Part shown: in pieces, positions 6,239 through 58,851 of the stretch | Layout: the number at the start of each line of letters is the position of its first letter | Position numbering within the stretch: position 1 is the stretch's first letter | Position numbers and translations under genes: made by a program | The notes under the pieces: generated by a model | What the model was told of the DNA's origin: nothing | Database searches by the model: none | What the model saw: only the letters and a program-made list of their open reading frames with translations | DNA from: Bacteroidota bacterium | Lineage (GTDB): Bacteria; Bacteroidota; Bacteroidia; Chitinophagales; Chitinophagaceae | Direction of reading: 5' to 3' | Length of the DNA: 64,000 nt | Assembly: GCA_039805245.1 (NCBI GenBank) | Contig: JBDLUN010000144.1 | Location: 162-64,161, forward strand

Positions 6239-7888
6239 ATGACCAGGATACTTGTTGTGTGCGCCATGATAGCTTTTTGTTCATGTTCAGGAAATAGGGC
6301 TGACAGTGTGTATGTGAACGGTCAGTTTTGGACGGGTGACGTGAGCAATCCGGTGGCGACGGTCGTGGCCATCAAAGACGGTAAAATCATCTATGTGGGT
6401 GATGATGCTGATTTGTACAGTGCCAGTGAAAAGATTGATCTGGAAGGCAAATGGGGCTATCCGGGTTTTTCAGACAACCATACCCACTTCCTTTCTGCAG
6501 GCTATGGTTTGTCGAGTGTGCAATTGAAAGACGCCATGACCAAAGAGGAATTCATCAAAAGAATCAGGGAGTTCAGTGCTTCCCATCCGGGTGACACCTG
6601 GATTTTGGAAGGCAGCTGGGATCATGAAAACTGGGGTGGGGAGTTGCCCTCGAAAGAGTGGATTGATTCAGTGACCGGTGATCATCCCCTCTTCATTTCC
6701 CGCTATGACGGACATATGGCCTTTGCCAACAGCAAAGCCATGAAGCTGGCAGGTATCACTGCCGCAACAAGCTCTCCTGCCGGTGGGGTGCTGGTGAAAG
6801 ATGCTCAGGGTGAACCAACAGGCATTTTCAAGGATGCTGCTATGAGCCTGATTCTGAAAGCAGTTCCCGACCCTACGGAGGCCCAGCTGGATGAATATTT
6901 GACGGCTGCCACAACACATGCCCTTTCGAAAGGCATAACCCATGTCAACGATATGGGCTCTTATGGCGGCTGGAAAGACCTGGAAACATATCGCAGGGCA
7001 GCAGCAGCCGGTAATATGAAACTCCGCATGTATTCTTTTGTGCCTTTGGCCACTTGGCAACAGCTCGATAGTTTTGTGCAAGAAAATGGCAAGGGGGATG
7101 ATTTGGTGCATTGGGGTGGTTTGAAAGGCTATGTGGATGGGTCATTGGGCTCCACTACAGCATGGTTTCATCAGCCTTATCTTGATGATCCTCATTCCCA
7201 TGGGTTGAGTATCACTGATACGGCAGACCTCAGGAAATGGGTATTGGGTGCCGATAAAGCTGGTCTTCATGTGGCTGTGCATGCCATTGGCGACAAGGCT
7301 AATGATTTCATTTTGGGGGTATATGATGAGGCCAGGAAAGTAAATGGAGAAAGGGATAGGCGGTTCCGTGTGGAACATGCGCAACATGTAACACCAGCAG
7401 CCATCGATAATTTTGCCAGGCAGCAGGTTGTTGCTTCCATGCATCCCTACCACCTGGTAGATGATGGGATTTGGGCTTACAAACGCTTGGATACCAGCCG
7501 ATTGAAAGGTACTTATGCCTTCAGGAGCATGTTAAACAAGCAAGTGATGGTTACTTTCGGTTCAGACTGGCCAGTAGCTCCTGTTGATCCCATGTTGGGC
7601 ATCTATGCTGCTGTTACAAGGCGCACAGGCGACAATAAAAATCCGGATGGATGGTATCCTGCCGAGAAAATGACAGTTGAAGAGGCCATCAGGGCTTACA
7701 CTACCGGCAACGCATTTGCATCCTACCTCGATGGCAAAGTGGGAGTACTTAAACTGGGCAATTATGCAGATTTCACCGTCCTTGATCAGGACATCCAAAA
7801 TATGGCTCCTGAAAAGATCAGGGACGTGAAGGTGTTGCATACCGTTGTCAATGGCAAGCATGTTTATCGCGCAAAGCAGTCGAATTGA
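6239..7888 (+). CDS. Amidohydrolase family 3 (YtcJ-like) metallohydrolase, probable lipoprotein
   Basis: PGFSDNHTH, DGSLGS, HAIGD, RVEHAQ and FGSDWPV motifs. Confidence 0.9.
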   Translation: MTRILVVCAMIAFCSCSGNRADSVYVNGQFWTGDVSNPVATVVAIKDGKIIYVGDDADLYSASEKIDLEGKWGYPGFSDNHTHFLSAGYGLSSVQLKDAMTKEEFIKRIREFSASHPGDTWILEGSWDHENWGGELPSKEWIDSVTGDHPLFISRYDGHMAFANSKAMKLAGITAATSSPAGGVLVKDAQGEPTGIFKDAAMSLILKAVPDPTEAQLDEYLTAATTHALSKGITHVNDMGSYGGWKDLETYRRAAAAGNMKLRMYSFVPLATWQQLDSFVQENGKGDDLVHWGGLKGYVDGSLGSTTAWFHQPYLDDPHSHGLSITDTADLRKWVLGADKAGLHVAVHAIGDKANDFILGVYDEARKVNGERDRRFRVEHAQHVTPAAIDNFARQQVVASMHPYHLVDDGIWAYKRLDTSRLKGTYAFRSMLNKQVMVTFGSDWPVAPVDPMLGIYAAVTRRTGDNKNPDGWYPAEKMTVEEAIRAYTTGNAFASYLDGKVGVLKLGNYADFTVLDQDIQNMAPEKIRDVKVLHTVVNGKHVYRAKQSN

Positions 7889-9870: not shown

Positions 9871-10653
9871 TTATCTGATATCGTTTAGTACATCAATTTG
9901 AACCAAGTATGAGGTTTGATGAGGGTTGTCTATATAAGCCAATAAGGCAATTGCAAAAGCAAAAGCCAGACTGAATAAAATGGTAGTTGCACGCAATGCA
10001 TTCTTGTTTCCTATATGGGAAAAGGCAATGGCAATCTGTGTGAAAAGTCCGAATATGAACAACACTGCAATTTTCGATGTAGGTATATGTTGTTTCCTCA
10101 ACTCACGCCGTTCAAACCAGGATTGTCGTATGTTCTCAAGTTCTGTATAAAAAGCTTGTTGCATCACTGCATGTCCGGCAAAGTACTTTTCATCTGCAGC
10201 AATCAAATAATATTCCTGAAATGTTTGTTTTGAAAAGGACTGAACCTTGTAATTATTGTATCCTTCTCCGCCCAGCATATCGTCATTGACTTCTTGTTCT
10301 TTAAGTTTTTGAATATAGTTATTTACGGCATTAGCAACCCTGATTGAATCAGGTCCTAAAGGTTCTGTCATCCGAAGCAATGCACGCATGGAATTTGCCT
10401 GCTCAGTCATCAATGCATTTGTTTTGGTCACTTTGTTCCAAACCTCAGAAAAAATAAGACTCAAAAACAGCGCAAATAGCAAGGCCACCGAAGCAAAATA
10501 TGACGGTGAAACACTTCTGGGACTGTGTTTCCAATCACTGTATTTTTGCATACCAATAATTACGGTAATGCCCATCAAAATCGGAAGCAGTGCGGTTGAA
10601 AATTTAAGCATTATCATCGCAGTTGATTTGTGGTGCCAAAAGTAACGATACAA
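9871..10653 (-). CDS. DUF4239 (bestrophin-like) membrane protein; true start may be 10617 or 10611
   Basis: Pattern VALLFALFLSLIFSEVW...EQANSMRALLR, plus two C-terminal TM helices. Confidence 0.7.
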   Translation of the reverse strand: MYRYFWHHKSTAMIMLKFSTALLPILMGITVIIGMQKYSDWKHSPRSVSPSYFASVALLFALFLSLIFSEVWNKVTKTNALMTEQANSMRALLRMTEPLGPDSIRVANAVNNYIQKLKEQEVNDDMLGGEGYNNYKVQSFSKQTFQEYYLIAADEKYFAGHAVMQQAFYTELENIRQSWFERRELRKQHIPTSKIAVLFIFGLFTQIAIAFSHIGNKNALRATTILFSLAFAFAIALLAYIDNPHQTSYLVQIDVLNDIR

Positions 10654-10702
10654 TCATAGAGAGAAATTTTATTCCTTGAAATTCTTTTGATTAATTTGAG
10701 AT

Positions 10703-48547: not shown

Positions 48548-49861
48548 TTGTCATTCAAAGCATTGAATTTGATCGAGCCCATCTTGAGGTCGCTCGAAAC
48601 AGAGGGTTACAGTACCCCCACCCCCATCCAACAACAATCCATCCCTGTAGCCCTTGAAGGAAGAGACCTTCTGGGATGTGCACAAACAGGTACAGGAAAA
48701 ACAGCAGCCTTTTCCCTTCCCATCCTGCAACAACTCTATCTGGCCAAACAGCAGGGCACATTGCCCAAAGGAATCAGTACACTCATCCTTACTCCCACAA
48801 GGGAACTGGCAATCCAGATTGCAGAGAGTATCGGCGTTTATGGAAAACATCTGGGATTGAAGCATTTGGTCATTTTTGGAGGGGTTTCCCAACACCCCCA
48901 AACGGAAGCCCTTCGCAGGGGTACAGATATACTCATCGCCACACCAGGTAGGTTGCTTGATCTCATGCAACAGGGATTCATCAGCCTGACACAGATCAGC
49001 ATTTTTGTGCTGGATGAGGCCGATAGGATGCTGGACATGGGATTTATCCATGATGTGCGCAAAGTGATTGCCAAATTGCCTGCGAAACGCCAAACATTGT
49101 TCTTCTCCGCCACCATGCCTGCTGAAATCGCTACGCTGGCAGACAATATCCTGAATAGGCCTGTCAAGGTGGAAGTGACTCCAGTGTCATCCACCGCACA
49201 GACCATTGCACAGGCTGTTTATTATGTTGATAAGGGCGATAAGAAACACCTGCTTGTTCATATCCTACATGACAAATCTATTGAACGCGTATTGGTTTTT
49301 GCCCGCACCAAACATGGATCTGATAAGGTGGTCAAGGATTTGCACAAACACGGTATTCCTGCCGAAGCCATTCATGGTAACAAATCCCAGAATGCCCGGC
49401 AGCGAGCATTGGCCAATTTCAAAAGTGGAACCACCCGTGTGCTGGTGGCAACAGATATAGCCGCGAGGGGTATCGATATTGACGAACTCACCCACGTAGT
49501 CAATTATGAACTGCCCAATGTACCGGAAACCTATGTGCATAGGATTGGTAGAACCGGACGCGCCGGAGCCAGTGGCATCGCGCTGTCATTTTGCGATCTT
49601 GAAGAAAGGGAATACCTCCGGGACATACAGAAGCTGATTGGCAAAGTGGTTCCCGTTATAGCAGATCACCCCCATGTATTGGATGTAAGTCCGGTTGGCA
49701 TGTCTGCAATAGGCTCATCTAAGTCAAAACCTTCCATAAGACAAGAACAGCCATCAGGTCGGAAAGGTGGATTCCAACAACGCAATGATCCCCGACAAAG
49801 ACCTGCTCCAGCTCCGGAAAGAAGGGGCAGTAGGATGGTCATTGAAAAAAGACAAGGATAA
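48548..49861 (+). CDS. rhlE: DEAD-box ATP-dependent RNA helicase (RhlE-like), TTG start
   Basis: Q motif [36 protein letters not shown] and [10 protein letters not shown]. Confidence 0.93.
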
Positions 49862-49891
49862 AAAAGAGAGGGGGTATAGAAATACCCCCTC
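49860..49891 (-). terminator. Intrinsic terminator whose better U-tract is on the minus strand (probably bidirectional)
   Basis: 10-bp stem GAGGGGGTAT/ATACCCCCTC (49868-49891). The minus strand continues TC-TTTTTT; the plus strand continues only GTTTG. Confidence 0.75.
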
Positions 49892-50182
49892 GTTTGTCTA
49901 ATAACTCTTAACGCTCGCACTAGGCCCGAAAGCCCGATGATTTTTCAATTCTGACATTATTGGATCTAAAATTTTACTGGTAGGTCTCGAGTACCGGTAT
50001 CAATATTATCTATATCAAATCAAGTTATTGATTATCAATTTATTTTGGTGCTTTTGCCAGGTTTTTGATAGTATCTTTTGGGATTTAAGCAGGGTTCCAA
50101 TGCGGAACTGATTTGCTGAGGTCTTCCTTGCAATGTATAAGGACTTGCAAAAAGGAAAAGGATTTGTTAACTTAGCGTTTGG

Positions 50183-50214
50183 CAAATATGAGTGAATATT
50201 AAACATTTAACAAA
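50183..50214 (-). promoter_or_regulatory. Putative leftward promoter divergent from oxyR
   Basis: Minus strand: TTTG (50214-50211), 20-bp spacer, CATATTTG (50190-50183; one mismatch to TAnnTTTG). Confidence 0.45.
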
Positions 50215-50234
50215 CTGAAATATTCTATCTAGGC

Positions 50235-50273
50235 ATAGAGTTAATCTATATTATCTATATTGGTTTTATCTAT
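50235..50273. promoter_or_regulatory. Putative OxyR/LysR binding site upstream of oxyR
   Basis: ATAG-N7-CTAT (50235-50249)-N7-ATAT-N9-CTAT, resembling the ATAG-N7-CTAT-N7-ATAG-N7-CTAT consensus. Confidence 0.55.
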
Positions 50274-50311
50274 ATTAGTCATATCTATTTCAGCCTTATA
50301 TTAGTAGAATT

Positions 50312-51256
50312 ATGAATATTCAGCAATTGGAGTATGTCATCGCACTGGATGATCATAGGCACTTTGTAACGGCTGCAGAAAAATGCCATGTCACACAAGC
50401 CACCTTGAGCATGATGGTCAAGAAACTTGAAGATGAGCTTGGGGTGAAACTGTTCGACAGAAGCAAAAAACCATTGGTACCAACCTCTGTAGGGAAAAGA
50501 ATCATATCACAGGCCCGCGTCATCATCCAGGAAGCATCGCGTATGGATGAAATCATTGGCTCGGAAAAGGGGGTCTTGAAAGGTGAACTGAGGCTCGGGG
50601 TAATACCCACATTGGCACCTTACGTCCTGCCCTTATTCGTAAAGGACTTTCTTCACAAATACCCTTTTGTTAAATTGAAAATAAGTGAAGTCACCACAGA
50701 TGAGATCATCTACAAGCTGGAGCAGGGTGACTTGGATGCCGGATTGATGGCCATTCCCCTGGGTAAAAAAGGATTGGTGGAACACCATCTGTTCAATGAA
50801 GAATTTGTGGTTTATGCTTCAGACAACCAGAGACTTCTCGAAAAAACCTATGTCATGCCTTCTGACATCGATCATAGCCAGCTTTGGTTATTGGAAGAAG
50901 GACATTGCATGCGTACCCAGGTGGTCAACCTTTGTGAACTGAAAGAAAGGGAAAGGGATTTGCACCAATTGGAATTTGAAGCCGGTAGCCTCAAAACCCT
51001 TAAGAAGGTTATCGACATCATGGATGGTATGACGGTATTGCCAATGTTGGCTATCAAGGAAATGAGTGAGCAAGAGCGGAAAAACATCCGTTATTTCAAA
51101 GCCCCGGCTCCGGTAAGGGAAATTGGTTTGGTAACTTACCGGTATTATGTCAAAGAATCCCTCGTGGAGGCCTTGAAAGATGTGATCCTGGCGAATATCC
51201 CTCTCGAAATTCCAGAGGGCTCACTGGCAGCCCCGCCGATGGTGATGAGGCCATAA
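50312..51256 (+). CDS. oxyR: Hydrogen peroxide-inducible genes activator (LysR family)
   Basis: HFVTAAEKCHVTQATLS HTH, GVIPTLAPY, and the redox cysteine pair in LLEEGHCMRTQVVNLC. Confidence 0.93.
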   Translation: MNIQQLEYVIALDDHRHFVTAAEKCHVTQATLSMMVKKLEDELGVKLFDRSKKPLVPTSVGKRIISQARVIIQEASRMDEIIGSEKGVLKGELRLGVIPTLAPYVLPLFVKDFLHKYPFVKLKISEVTTDEIIYKLEQGDLDAGLMAIPLGKKGLVEHHLFNEEFVVYASDNQRLLEKTYVMPSDIDHSQLWLLEEGHCMRTQVVNLCELKERERDLHQLEFEAGSLKTLKKVIDIMDGMTVLPMLAIKEMSEQERKNIRYFKAPAPVREIGLVTYRYYVKESLVEALKDVILANIPLEIPEGSLAAPPMVMRP

Positions 51257-51374: not shown

Positions 51375-53099
51375 ATGGCAGGCATCGATGTGGAGGTTTC
51401 CCTCGGGAAATCCATCAGCAGATTTTTTGAAGTAATAAGGCTTGAAAAAAAAGAGGTTTCGGCCATCTATTTTTTTGCCATGCTGAGCGGGCTTATACAG
51501 CTTTCTCTTCCCTTAGGCATCCAAGCCATCATCAATTTTGCACAAGTTGCAGCAGGACAAAGCAAACTACCCGCTTCCATGTGGCTGTTGATTGTGATGG
51601 TTGTTTTGGGGGTGCTGTCTGCTGGTGTGCTGCAAGTGAGCCAAATGCGCGTTGTTGAAAAAATCCAGCAACGGATCTTCACCCGCTACGCATTGGAATT
51701 TACTTATATCATCCCCAAACTGAAGGTCGCTTCAACAGACCAATACCACCTGCCTGAATTGGTGAACCGATTCTTTGATACGGTTTCCCTCCAAAAAGCA
51801 CTTTCCAAATTATTGATCGATATCCCATTGGCAGTCATCCAAATACTTTTCGGATTGATACTGCTTTCTTTTTACAATCCGGTATTCATTGTATTGGGTT
51901 TGCTTTTGTTGACTATACTGTATGCAGTGTTGTATTATACCTCCAAACCCGGACTGGCAGCATCCCTTAGGGAAAGCAATTACAAGTATAGCGTAGCCGG
52001 TTGGCTGGAAGAGCTCGCGAGAACCTTCAAAACATTTAAGGTTGCCGGAAACAATAGCATCCACCTGAAGAAAACGGATAAAATCCTGGAAGGCTATCTG
52101 AAAGCGCGAACAGAACATTTCCAAGTCTTAAAATTCCAGTATTGGTCATTGATATTTTTCAAATTGCTGATCACCGCTGCCATGCTGATCATCGGAGCGT
52201 TTCTGTTGATGGATCAACAGCTCAATCTGGGTCAGTTTATCGCAGCCGAAATCGTCATCCTCACTGTGCTCGCTGCTGTAGAAAAGCTGATCCTCAGCCT
52301 GGATAAAGCCTATGACCTGCTGACCAGCATCGATAAACTCACCAAAGTAACCGATAAAGAAATTGAAACGGGAGGTAGCATGTTGTTTCGTCCGAACAAC
52401 CTGGGCATTGCTCTCCACTTGGAAAACCTCACCGTAGGATTTGATGAAAGCAAGCCCATACTCAGTGGCATCAATTTATCTATGATGCCCGGAGAGAAAG
52501 TTTGCATCATGGGTGATGCTTCCTCCGGCAAATCAACACTGTTGGAAGTGGTGACGGGAGCCTTGCAACATCAGCAGGGTTCGGTGCTGGTTAATGGTAT
52601 ACCCATCGGTAATTACCAGCCAGAAGCTTACCGTAAACACATTGGTGTATTTTACCATGATCAGGATATATTTGAGGGAACCCTGCTTGAAAACATCACC
52701 ATGGGTGACCCTGCCATTGAGATTCAAACCTTGATGCCTCTGGTGGAAATGGTAGGACTGAAGTCATTCCTCAGTTCCCTACCGGCAGGATTTGATACCC
52801 TGCTGCAACCCACCGGAAAGGGACTCTCCAGCATTATTGCCAAAAAAATCCTGCTACTCAGGGCCTTCACCGGAAATCCGGAATTACTCCTGCTAGACGA
52901 ACCCTTTGAAATGGCAGGTGGGGAACAGTGGCGAAAAATTGAGCATCATCTGTTGGAATTGAAAAATACCAGTATGCTTGTGGTAACAGGTAATATTGAA
53001 TTCGCAAAGCAGTGTGACAAGCTGGTCATCCTGGAAAACGGTAAGGTTAAAAAAAGCGGTAGTCCCTTGATGATACTGCAAGAGGAGGGAAAGATCTGA
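51375..53099 (+). CDS. T1SS-type ABC exporter (TMD+NBD, no C39 peptidase domain)
   Basis: ABC membrane domain (PELVNRFFDT, GQFIAAEI), Walker A GDASSGKST and Walker B LLLDEP; signature motif degenerate. Confidence 0.88.
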   Translation: MAGIDVEVSLGKSISRFFEVIRLEKKEVSAIYFFAMLSGLIQLSLPLGIQAIINFAQVAAGQSKLPASMWLLIVMVVLGVLSAGVLQVSQMRVVEKIQQRIFTRYALEFTYIIPKLKVASTDQYHLPELVNRFFDTVSLQKALSKLLIDIPLAVIQILFGLILLSFYNPVFIVLGLLLLTILYAVLYYTSKPGLAASLRESNYKYSVAGWLEELARTFKTFKVAGNNSIHLKKTDKILEGYLKARTEHFQVLKFQYWSLIFFKLLITAAMLIIGAFLLMDQQLNLGQFIAAEIVILTVLAAVEKLILSLDKAYDLLTSIDKLTKVTDKEIETGGSMLFRPNNLGIALHLENLTVGFDESKPILSGINLSMMPGEKVCIMGDASSGKSTLLEVVTGALQHQQGSVLVNGIPIGNYQPEAYRKHIGVFYHDQDIFEGTLLENITMGDPAIEIQTLMPLVEMVGLKSFLSSLPAGFDTLLQPTGKGLSSIIAKKILLLRAFTGNPELLLLDEPFEMAGGEQWRKIEHHLLELKNTSMLVVTGNIEFAKQCDKLVILENGKVKKSGSPLMILQEEGKI

Positions 53100-56919: not shown

Positions 56920-56955
56920 ACTTGAAAATACATCATCCCGACAAATCCACAAGCG

Positions 56956-58851
56956 TCAGATATTGATAATCAAAACGGGTATGCGCAGGGCATGACGCAC
57001 AGCATCCACTGTTTGGCCATAAACCACGTCTCGGATGCCGGAATGTCCGTGCGAGCCAATGACGAGCAGGTCGGCCCGTTGTTCCCGCACTATCCTGACG
57101 ATCTCTTTCACCCTGCCGTCAAAGCCCAATAAGCCTGTGGCGGTGTATCCTTTGTCTCTCAACTCCTGAACAAATTTTTCCATCCGCTCCTTGTCGTTTC
57201 GCGTTTCCATATCATCTGCAGCATCGCCGAGGAAGCGGGTGGCCGGACTTTCCACAATATGTATCAACAGGTAATGGCTTTCTTTGGTGCCTTGCCCCAG
57301 CGCATGACCAATCAGTTTGTGGTCGTTCTTACTGAAGTCGAGGGCCACGGCAATCTTTTGAGCAGCTGCTTTCGCCTTTAAAGGAATCACCACATGCTGC
57401 AGTTTTTCTGGCAAGGGATGCACACTGGTTTCAGGTGTGGAGATCTTGACGAAAAGCGGATAGAAGATAGCCATCAATAGCAATGTCAGGTATGCCAATC
57501 CACCAGCAATAATCAATGCCTTGCCCAACAAGGACTGTGACTCCTCGAAGAACAGGGATGCCTGTTCGTACACCATGCGCAGGTTCAGGTAAACAAGCAC
57601 CAATGTGATTAATGATGCCAATACAATCAACCAGGGTTTGATGGTGAAGATGCCCATTGTTTTTCTGTCGCTTGTAAAATGGATCAGGGGAATGATGGCG
57701 AAGCCGAGTTGCATACTCAGGATAACCTGACTAAATATCAGCAGGCTGTCGATATTGTTTTCACCATTGATGAGGATGACTACCACAGCCGGTACAACAG
57801 CAATCAAACGGGTCATCAGCCGCCTCACCCAAGGTGTAATCCTGAGCTGCAGGTAGCCTTCCATCACAATCTGACCTGCCATTGTTCCGGTGATGGTGGA
57901 ACTTTGTCCGGATGCTATCAGTGCGATGGCGAAGAGTGTTGGCGCCAATGAAGAACCCAGCATGGGGGCGAGCAGTTCATGTGCCTGTTTGATTTCGGCT
58001 ACATCGGTTCTGCCGGAGCTGTAAAATACAGTGGCTGCCAAGATCAGGATAAACGCATTGACAAAAAAAGCAAGGTTCAGTGCGATGGCACTGTCAATGA
58101 AGTTCAGTTTGAGCGATTTTTTGATACCGGCAGTATCCCGTTTGATCTTCCTTGTTTGCACCAGTGCCGAATGCAGGTATAGGTTATGGGGCATTACGGT
58201 TGCACCTATGATACCAATGGCAATGTAAAGCGCCTGCTCATTGGGAATGGAAGGGATGAAACCTTTGGCCACTTCACCCAAATCAGGCTTGGCCAGAAAC
58301 ATTTCTGTCAGGAAGCTGAATCCAATAATCCCCACTAGGGAAATGATAAAGGCTTCCATCTTGCGGATGCCCAATCGCTGGAGGAAGAGGAACAGAAAGG
58401 TATCTGCTACGGTCAGCAAAACTCCCCAAATCAGGGGCAAGCCGGTGAGCAACTGAATGCCAATAGCCATTCCGAGGATTTCGGCAAGGTCAGTTGCAGC
58501 AATGGCTACTTCCGCCAGGATATAAAAGGCAAAATTGACACCTTTGGGATAGGTTTCCCTATTGGCTTGGGCCAGATCTCGGCCACGGACAATACCCAGT
58601 CTGGCCGACAGGCTTTGGAGCAGTAATGCCATCAGGTTACTCATCAACAAAACCCAGATGAGCTTATAGCCAAATTGGCTGCCACCAGCCAAATCTGTGG
58701 CCCAGTTGCCTGGATCCATATAGCCAACACTTACAAGATATGCTGGCCCAAAGAATGCCAGCACCCTCCTCCAGCCTTTGCGCTGATGGGCAGGGTCTAC
58801 ACTGTGGTGAACTTCGCTAAGGGAACTGTAGTTGGGGTCGGTATGTTTCAT
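56956..58851 (-). CDS. mntH: Nramp divalent metal (Mn2+) transporter with C-terminal USP-like domain
   Basis: YMDPGNW, MPHNLYLHS and GQSSTITGT; C-terminal AVALDFS...GSHGHSG...YG USP fold. Confidence 0.93.
   Translation of the reverse strand: MKHTDPNYSSLSEVHHSVDPAHQRKGWRRVLAFFGPAYLVSVGYMDPGNWATDLAGGSQFGYKLIWVLLMSNLMALLLQSLSARLGIVRGRDLAQANRETYPKGVNFAFYILAEVAIAATDLAEILGMAIGIQLLTGLPLIWGVLLTVADTFLFLFLQRLGIRKMEAFIISLVGIIGFSFLTEMFLAKPDLGEVAKGFIPSIPNEQALYIAIGIIGATVMPHNLYLHSALVQTRKIKRDTAGIKKSLKLNFIDSAIALNLAFFVNAFILILAATVFYSSGRTDVAEIKQAHELLAPMLGSSLAPTLFAIALIASGQSSTITGTMAGQIVMEGYLQLRITPWVRRLMTRLIAVVPAVVVILINGENNIDSLLIFSQVILSMQLGFAIIPLIHFTSDRKTMGIFTIKPWLIVLASLITLVLVYLNLRMVYEQASLFFEESQSLLGKALIIAGGLAYLTLLLMAIFYPLFVKISTPETSVHPLPEKLQHVVIPLKAKAAAQKIAVALDFSKNDHKLIGHALGQGTKESHYLLIHIVESPATRFLGDAADDMETRNDKERMEKFVQELRDKGYTATGLLGFDGRVKEIVRIVREQRADLLVIGSHGHSGIRDVVYGQTVDAVRHALRIPVLIINI

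Follow-up and report, generated by a model that had tools for sequence, protein, structure and literature searches.

The rhlE–oxyR gap and its predicted transcription unit

The window analysed in this study was a 64,000-nucleotide (nt) stretch of DNA on contig C144 of an uncultured freshwater Chitinophagaceae bacterium, whose genome of 2.69 Mb in 260 contigs was labelled G000 in the comparisons. A 450-bp gap at positions 49862–50311 of this window was flanked by two plus-strand genes, one rhlE-like and the other oxyR. The gap carried a conserved and structured unit on the minus strand, which pointed away from oxyR and which probably represents a functional non-coding RNA gene. The whole explanation, in which the unit encodes an OxyR-activated regulatory RNA and is an analogue of OxyS outside the OxyS family, was given a probability of about 0.6 with OxyR control included. 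The gap sequence occurred as a single copy in its own genome.

The relatives with the same unit were freshwater metagenome-assembled genomes labelled Chitinophagaceae, Sphingobacteriales or Bacteroidota, which came from Lake Mendota and rivers. The unit was detected in 6 of the 82 species of the genus by a covariance model (R1) built on its 3′ part, and these species constitute clade A. Clade B was found via the OxyR orthologues of four further species, which were 67–68% identical to the OxyR of the window; the same operator and promoter preceded a unit there that was shorter, at about 195 nt, and the 3′ part of which was recognisably homologous. Conservation was counted over 5 genomes, or over 12 clade A sequences that included six metagenome contigs. 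The features of the unit are listed below from operator to terminator, followed by an open reading frame (ORF) inside it and by the flanking features.

50225–50249, minus strand: predicted OxyR-type operator, ATAG-N7-CTAT-N6-ATAG (motif and conservation)
50183–50214, minus strand: predicted Bacteroidota-type promoter, with the −33 TTTG at 50214–50211, N20 and the −7 box CATATTTG at 50190–50183
50143–50174, minus strand: conserved 5′ block UAAGUUAACAAAUCCUUUUCCUUUUUGCAAGU, with 27/31 positions invariant in the 5 genomes and 24/31 in the 12 sequences
49971–50142, minus strand: variable middle, with 40/170 positions invariant in the 5 genomes and 18/170 in the 12 sequences, and with insertions and deletions of up to about 45 nt
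49940–49970, minus strand: single-stranded stretch 1 UUUAGAUCCAAUAAUGUCAGAAUUGAAAAAU, conserved and a candidate site of interaction
49918–49939, minus strand: hairpin CAU-C-GGGCU-UUCG-GGCCU-A-GUG, with the core GGGCU-UUCG-GGCCU at 49935–49922 and a CAU/GUG extension
49892–49917, minus strand: conserved single-stranded stretch 2 CGAGCGUUAAGAGUUAUUAGACAAAC, of which GAGUUAUUA is common to clade B
49860–49891, minus strand: intrinsic terminator with a 10-bp stem, a UUUC loop and a U-tract (terminator scan)
49898–49957, minus strand: ORF of 19 amino acids (aa), MSELKNHRAFGPSASVKSY, judged non-coding; its stop lies 6 nt before the terminator stem
50251–50311, no strand assigned: leader next to oxyR, with additional direct repeats of the ATATAGATAA type (sequence; clade A only)
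50312–51256, plus strand: oxyR, a LysR-type peroxide sensor (Pfam HTH_1 and LysR_substrate), with both redox cysteines in GHCMRTQVVNLC
48548–49861, plus strand: rhlE-like DEAD-box helicase gene (Pfam and NCBIfam), a convergent neighbour outside the unit

The LysR-type regulator beside the gap was assigned as a genuine OxyR from its sequence. The top NCBIfam model was OxyR at 207 bits, a score under the equivalog cut-off, and every best match in a comparison with the PDB was an OxyR, the top one being 4x6g (E 1.7e-43). A genome search of G000 returned one copy of OxyR only.

Both clades shared the layout ATAG-N7-CTAT-N6-ATAG-N10-TTTG-N20-(−7 box), in which the last ATAG box ended 10 nt upstream of the −33 TTTG. 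The operator boxes were invariant in the 12 clade A sequences and had the same spacing in clade B. Across the host genome, the three-box operator had 3 exact matches, and 11 matches were obtained when at most one mismatch was allowed. Clade A showed no variation in TTCAGTTTG and A-N-ATTTG, and clade B kept the TTTG of both promoter boxes at equal spacing; for the promoter region as a whole, 32/43 positions were invariant in the 5 genomes and 29/43 in the 12 sequences. Transcription would start at about 50177 and give a predicted RNA of about 318 nt in G000 and of about 195–320 nt in the relatives. On the minus strand, TCTTTTTTAT followed the terminator stem (49891–49868, with 6 G–C pairs), as against only GTTTGTCTAA on the plus strand. 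The terminator of clade B differed in sequence, and it was equivalent and stood at the same place.

A first-pass annotation of the window had described several of these features. The terminator with a minus-strand U-tract was recovered at its coordinates by the terminator scan, the minus-strand hairpin GGGCU-UUCG-GGCCU at 49922–49935 was present and covarying, and the suggested length of about 310 nt agreed with the one predicted here. The minus-strand promoter TTTG-N20-CATATTTG also lay where it had been placed, but its gap to the operator was 10 nt and not about 20 bp. The 19-aa ORF was present at 49957–49898 and stopped 6 nt before the stem, as described, but it was not coding.

The oxyR-proximal leader had 61/86 positions invariant in the 5 genomes. 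It amounted to about 60 extra bases in clade A, at 50251–50311, with three to four ATATAGATAA-like direct repeats, which are additional ATAG half-sites. The leader stretch was absent in clade B, where the ATG of oxyR directly abutted the operator. A perfect TAnnTTTG box for oxyR lay inside the clade B operator on the opposite strand, and such overlapping boxes would fit autorepression and divergent activation as in E. coli. On the other side of the regulator, an ABC-transporter gene (window 51375–53099; L033 2565–3899) stood directly downstream of oxyR. Because this gene was kept in clade B too, oxyR may share a transcript with a downstream exporter operon or have a functional link to it.

Conservation, base pairing and distribution of the unit

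The background of conservation was given by the third codon positions of oxyR, at which G000 was only 47–50% identical to the remaining genomes of clade A; in the five genomes, 37.6% of these positions were invariant. The operator, the −33/−7 boxes, the 5′ block and the 3′ domain were far better conserved than these synonymous sites. The 3′ domain of about 110 nt, which consists of a single-stranded stretch, the UUCG hairpin, a second single-stranded stretch and the terminator, was 96% conserved, as against 91–92% at the first and second codon positions of oxyR. Stretch 1 (scored as 49970–49937) had 33/34 positions invariant in the 5 genomes and 31/34 in the 12 sequences. For stretch 2 (scored as 49920–49892), the value was 29/29 both in the 5 genomes and in all 12 clade A sequences. 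Beyond the terminator, 1/24 positions was invariant in the two sets alike. Conservation began at the operator and promoter and ended exactly at the terminator; hence, the pattern was the one expected of a transcription unit. Judged from these counts, the transcribed part is under strong purifying selection. Stretch 1 was recognisably homologous in clade B, and GAGTTATTA was kept in 7/8 clade B sequences, with GAGTCATTA at this place in G006.

Base pairing was counted for the hairpin and the terminator jointly over the 12 sequences, of which 9 were distinct. Standard pairs were found in 162/162 cells. Both-sided changes occurred in four pairs, namely C–G to U–A twice and G–C to A–U in the hairpin, and A–U to G–C in the terminator. 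In the UUCG hairpin, all cells paired and both-sided changes were present in 3/8 pairs. The covariation score was reached by 0/500 shuffles, and sliding the partner by one column cut pairing to 49–56%. Moreover, 18 cells were G–U or U–G pairs, which would become A–C mismatches if the plus strand were read. These pairs fit only the minus strand, and the RNA was therefore placed on it.

Two further pairings were considered. A possible 5′ UUUUCC/GGAAAA stem with a downstream island paired in 94% of the cells, showed no covariation and also paired when slid by one column. The pairing of AACGCU at the 5′ end with AGCGUU in the 3′ domain, taken from the minimum free energy fold, had a 5′ partner that varied and a 3′ partner without compensation, and it was rejected.

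Model R2, which was built from clades A and B, detected the unit in 14 of the 82 species of the genus, once per genome, and gave no match over 400 other genomes of the family (about 150 other genera). Model R1, run over 401 genomes of the order, returned only two terminator-only matches, L012 (behind a SusD-like gene) and L013. The family is narrow and comprises 14 species of uncultured freshwater bacteria. The unit adjoined oxyR and pointed away from it in 14/14 genomes. On the far side, clade A had a convergent rhlE, G013 a gene whose weak likeness to Kelch fell short of the Pfam cut-off, G006 a beta-helix gene and G009 a convergent gene for an M16 peptidase. The far-side neighbour varied while oxyR was constant; therefore, the unit travels with oxyR and not with its other neighbour. 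The OxyR proteins of clades A and B were only 67–69% identical to each other.

A second strong hairpin, AGCCCATGTAGTTACATGGGCT, was observed in clade B about 50 nt past the RNA terminator (L033/G013, about 1150–1200; L034/G016, about 2700–2740), and it preceded the co-oriented downstream gene.

Relation to katG loci and weighing of the readings

In two distant congeners, G015 and G012, whose OxyR proteins were 48–50% identical to that of the window, oxyR was divergent from a full-length katG (741–747 aa). The oxyR–katG intergenic region of these genomes aligned with the operator and the −33 region of the RNA gene at a local score of 31, which was reached by 0/200 shuffles. The likeness, shared by a second oxyR–katG locus in the clade A genome G011, covered the operator architecture and an equally distant −33 element (ATAGAT..CTAT..ATA(G/A)A..TCA(G/A)TTTG). 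The promoter drives a catalase-peroxidase at those loci, whereas it would drive a non-coding RNA here, and the transcribed parts had no significant similarity. The katG-type appearance of the operator and promoter is the best available indirect evidence of OxyR dependence, and the RNA promoter may descend from a peroxidase-gene promoter.

The second OxyR of G011 (L041, G011:C95, 1340–2439) was 41% identical to that of the window and divergent from katG. ATAG/CTAT boxes stood in its intergenic region at another spacing, together with a TACATCTTTA box that resembled the −7 box in the RNA promoter of clade B. In G000, katG (contig C75, 8114–10318) was not beside oxyR, and the nearest operator with one mismatch lay about 560 bp upstream of it (about 7534–7558). 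A regulon scan of G000 found no three-box operator match within 500 bp of katG and did not inform the regulon. The resemblance of the 5′ block to a stretch upstream of the G000 katG was dismissed as chance, with CCTTTTTGC occurring 113 times across G000. In G015, the leader of katG (L042, G015:C136, about 120–210) contained a terminator-like hairpin, CAGGAU..GCUC-UUGGCAG-GAGC-AUCCUG, followed by U7 and located about 25 nt before the ATG, which could be an attenuator or the source of a leader-derived short RNA.

In the proposed mechanism, oxidised OxyR would bind the operator (ATAG-N7-CTAT-N6-ATAG), whose end lies 10 nt upstream of the −33 element, and would activate an imperfect Bacteroidota-type promoter of the same design as that of katG beside oxyR in the distant congeners. 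Minus-strand transcription would run away from oxyR and stop at the intrinsic terminator at 49891–49860. The predicted RNA would consist of the conserved 5′ block, a middle that is free to evolve and the nearly invariant 3′ domain. Its two invariant unpaired stretches (49970–49940 and 49917–49892) would most likely act in the peroxide response, either by base pairing in trans with mRNAs or by protein binding. Transcription, OxyR dependence, peroxide induction and targets are predictions from the DNA, and action in trans is held with less confidence than the explanation as a whole.

Several observations weigh against this reading. The motif TTTG-N19-21-ANNTTTG was not enriched in the window, with 11 matches versus 8.2 ± 2.8 in shuffles; taken alone, the promoter motif is no more than chance, and its support comes from conservation. 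The 5′ part of the RNA had no consensus structure or covariation, the folding z-score of the whole RNA was only −2.0, and the UUCG hairpin was specific to clade A and not kept in clade B. OxyR binding at both, and not common descent, could account for the likeness of the operator to katG promoters. Furthermore, G011 has its second OxyR paralogue beside katG, and given this paralogue, duplication is also possible. A crude target search with RNAduplex, in which three conserved stretches were compared with 2203 ORF starts of one genome without an accessibility term, gave no oxidative-stress theme among the predicted targets, and katG and oxyR ranked mid-list. The top matches were the 5′ region of a sialidase-like gene and carA, and these two best candidates were not conserved in genomes that keep the RNA unchanged. 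The sialidase-like site (window about 56942–56974) was found in only one other clade A genome, where the complementarity was eroded, and the carA site varied at synonymous positions while the RNA stretch was invariant; both sites were rejected.

The 80 bp upstream of carA (G000 contig C245, about 10595–10674) were almost invariant over both clades, and the beginning of the carA coding sequence was less conserved (alignment A15). This region includes a hairpin, AAGGCAGGTC-TTTTAG-TCCTGCCTT, a T-run and TTTTGCA.

The same failure of the search to turn up a conserved trans target would suit a real RNA that acts in cis, on oxyR expression via divergent or overlapping transcription, or by protein binding and not by pairing with mRNAs, for instance as a trap for an RNA-binding protein. 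The strict linkage to oxyR (14/14) and the oxyR box inside the clade B operator on the other strand, by which the two promoters overlap, are also consistent with such a role. However, promoter interference needs no nearly invariant 3′ domain of 110 nt at a distance of 200 nt from oxyR, and long invariant unpaired stretches next to a hairpin and a terminator are the usual anatomy of a base-pairing small RNA (sRNA). The crudeness of the search, confined as it was to RNAduplex on one genome without accessibility, also lessens the weight of its outcome. A cis-acting or protein-binding RNA was considered unlikely, at around one chance in several.

A coding role for the unit was judged very unlikely. 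The RNA would then be the mRNA of the 19-aa protein MSELKNHRAFGPSASVKSY with a long 5′ untranslated region, or a dual-function RNA, as the first-pass annotation had allowed in its option of a small-protein mRNA. All 12 clade A sequences had the ORF intact, an A-rich stretch preceded it, as is usual at Bacteroidota translation starts, and an alternative alignment gave an ending of ...SVK(V)SY-stop in clade B. However, its variable sites in the five genomes were spread 2/2/2 over the codon positions and lay all within the hairpin, where the residue changes (R/K, A/V, F/L, G/E, P/L) kept the base pair. Third positions were invariant in 18/20 cases, as against 37.6% in oxyR (P = 1.8e-6), and the other 14 codons had no synonymous change, although 62% of the oxyR third positions vary. 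In clade B, the homologous ATG was ATA, a T-run inside the region varied in length by 1–2 nt and the stops stood at differing places; G006 had a further 1-nt deletion in the homologous region. Because codon periodicity was lacking and the start was lost and indels were present in clade B, the 19-aa ORF is, on this evidence, not a gene; it is intact in clade A only because almost nothing varies there. A 63-aa ORF (50206–50015, minus strand) was also rejected, as it started upstream of the −7 box, had no Pfam match and was broken by indels in the relatives. The unit had no conserved reading frame, as an independent sRNA gene would, and no frame kept with an excess of synonymous change across the relatives, which would mark a small protein, was found.

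The residue of a deleted OxyR target, which the first-pass annotation had offered as its alternative, may hold for the operator and promoter but not for the transcribed part. A functionless, decaying remnant of a gene such as katG would agree with the presence of katG in this slot in G012 and G015, where the operator and promoter align, and with dps–ahpC in the slot beside oxyR in another family of the same order. Nevertheless, the 3′ domain surpassed the synonymous and even the first and second codon positions of oxyR in conservation and showed compensatory changes, and the unit was kept in two clades whose OxyR proteins were only 67–69% identical. Comparison with the katG 3′ ends of G015, G012 and G000 and with the upstream region of the G000 katG gave no similarity to the unit above shuffles. 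Recent horizontal transfer of the block, as a source of artefactual conservation, is unlikely, with the middle diverged and synteny preserved. Decay of a lost target gene was therefore regarded as highly improbable. Equally improbable are DNA-level elements in place of an RNA gene, such as regulator sites (the 5′ block immediately follows the promoter, where an operator could be located) or a bidirectional rhlE terminator (the hairpin at 49868–49891 can also end rhlE transcription), because the G–U pairs and compensatory changes indicate a minus-strand RNA, clade B keeps the unit without the rhlE neighbour and the single-stranded stretches are not palindromic.

Comparison with OxyS and with sRNAs of Bacteroidota

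OxyS is the textbook stress-induced sRNA and is confined to Enterobacteriaceae. Bacteroidota are not known to have Hfq, the classical chaperone, and little is known of stress-linked sRNAs in this phylum. An Rfam cmscan of 49000–51000 on both strands at E ≤ 10 found no OxyS (RF00035), and its seven matches were unrelated and far below thresholds. The predicted RNA resembled OxyS in being a gene-less unit that points away from oxyR, with a predicted promoter abutting an ATAG/CTAT operator and with an intrinsic terminator, and in occupying a slot that is filled by an OxyR-controlled peroxidase gene in relatives (PMC8825220). It differed in length (about 195–320 nt versus about 110 nt for OxyS, a two- to threefold excess), in having no Rfam match, in its predicted Bacteroidota −33/−7 promoter and in belonging to another phylum, and it is known here from sequence alone. 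OxyS took the place of a peroxidase gene beside oxyR and arose from the 3′ end of the replaced gene (PMC8825220), whereas only the operator and promoter of the present unit resemble a katG locus.

Within the phylum, the intergenic sRNAs GibS and MasB of Bacteroides thetaiotaomicron (PMC7366714, PMC10994844) shared with the unit their promoter grammar, intrinsic terminators and presumed unpaired seeds. They had no homology to it and have been detected experimentally, whereas the present unit is a prediction. OxyR as a term was absent from the full text of PMC7366714 and PMC10994844, and no sRNA beside oxyR was reported there.

The first-pass annotation had seen an OxyS-like, gene-less unit divergent from oxyR that it did not know to be described in Bacteroidota. 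This picture held up: the regulator was assigned as a genuine OxyR, the unit was conserved and linked to oxyR in 14/14 genomes, the recommended covariation check across relatives yielded compensatory changes in the hairpin and the terminator, and full-text literature searches brought up no Bacteroidota sRNA linked to OxyR. The unit was judged to be a new family of RNA within an arrangement of a kind already known. The further proposal, that it is the first OxyR-dependent regulatory RNA in Bacteroidota and that a katG-type promoter beside oxyR was recruited to drive a non-coding RNA in an independent re-run of the OxyS route, is tentative and stands at slightly under even odds.

If the OxyR-activated RNA is real, the OxyS-like arrangement would gain a new example in a new phylum. 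The pairing of a sensor with a divergent regulatory RNA would then be a recurrent solution, in which a non-homologous RNA occupies the same slot behind an operator of the kind that drives katG in relatives, and the locus would be a second case for the birth of sRNAs at loci of genes of the same regulon (PMC8825220). The nearly invariant unpaired stretches of 26–31 nt would provide a starting point for finding the targets of this RNA.

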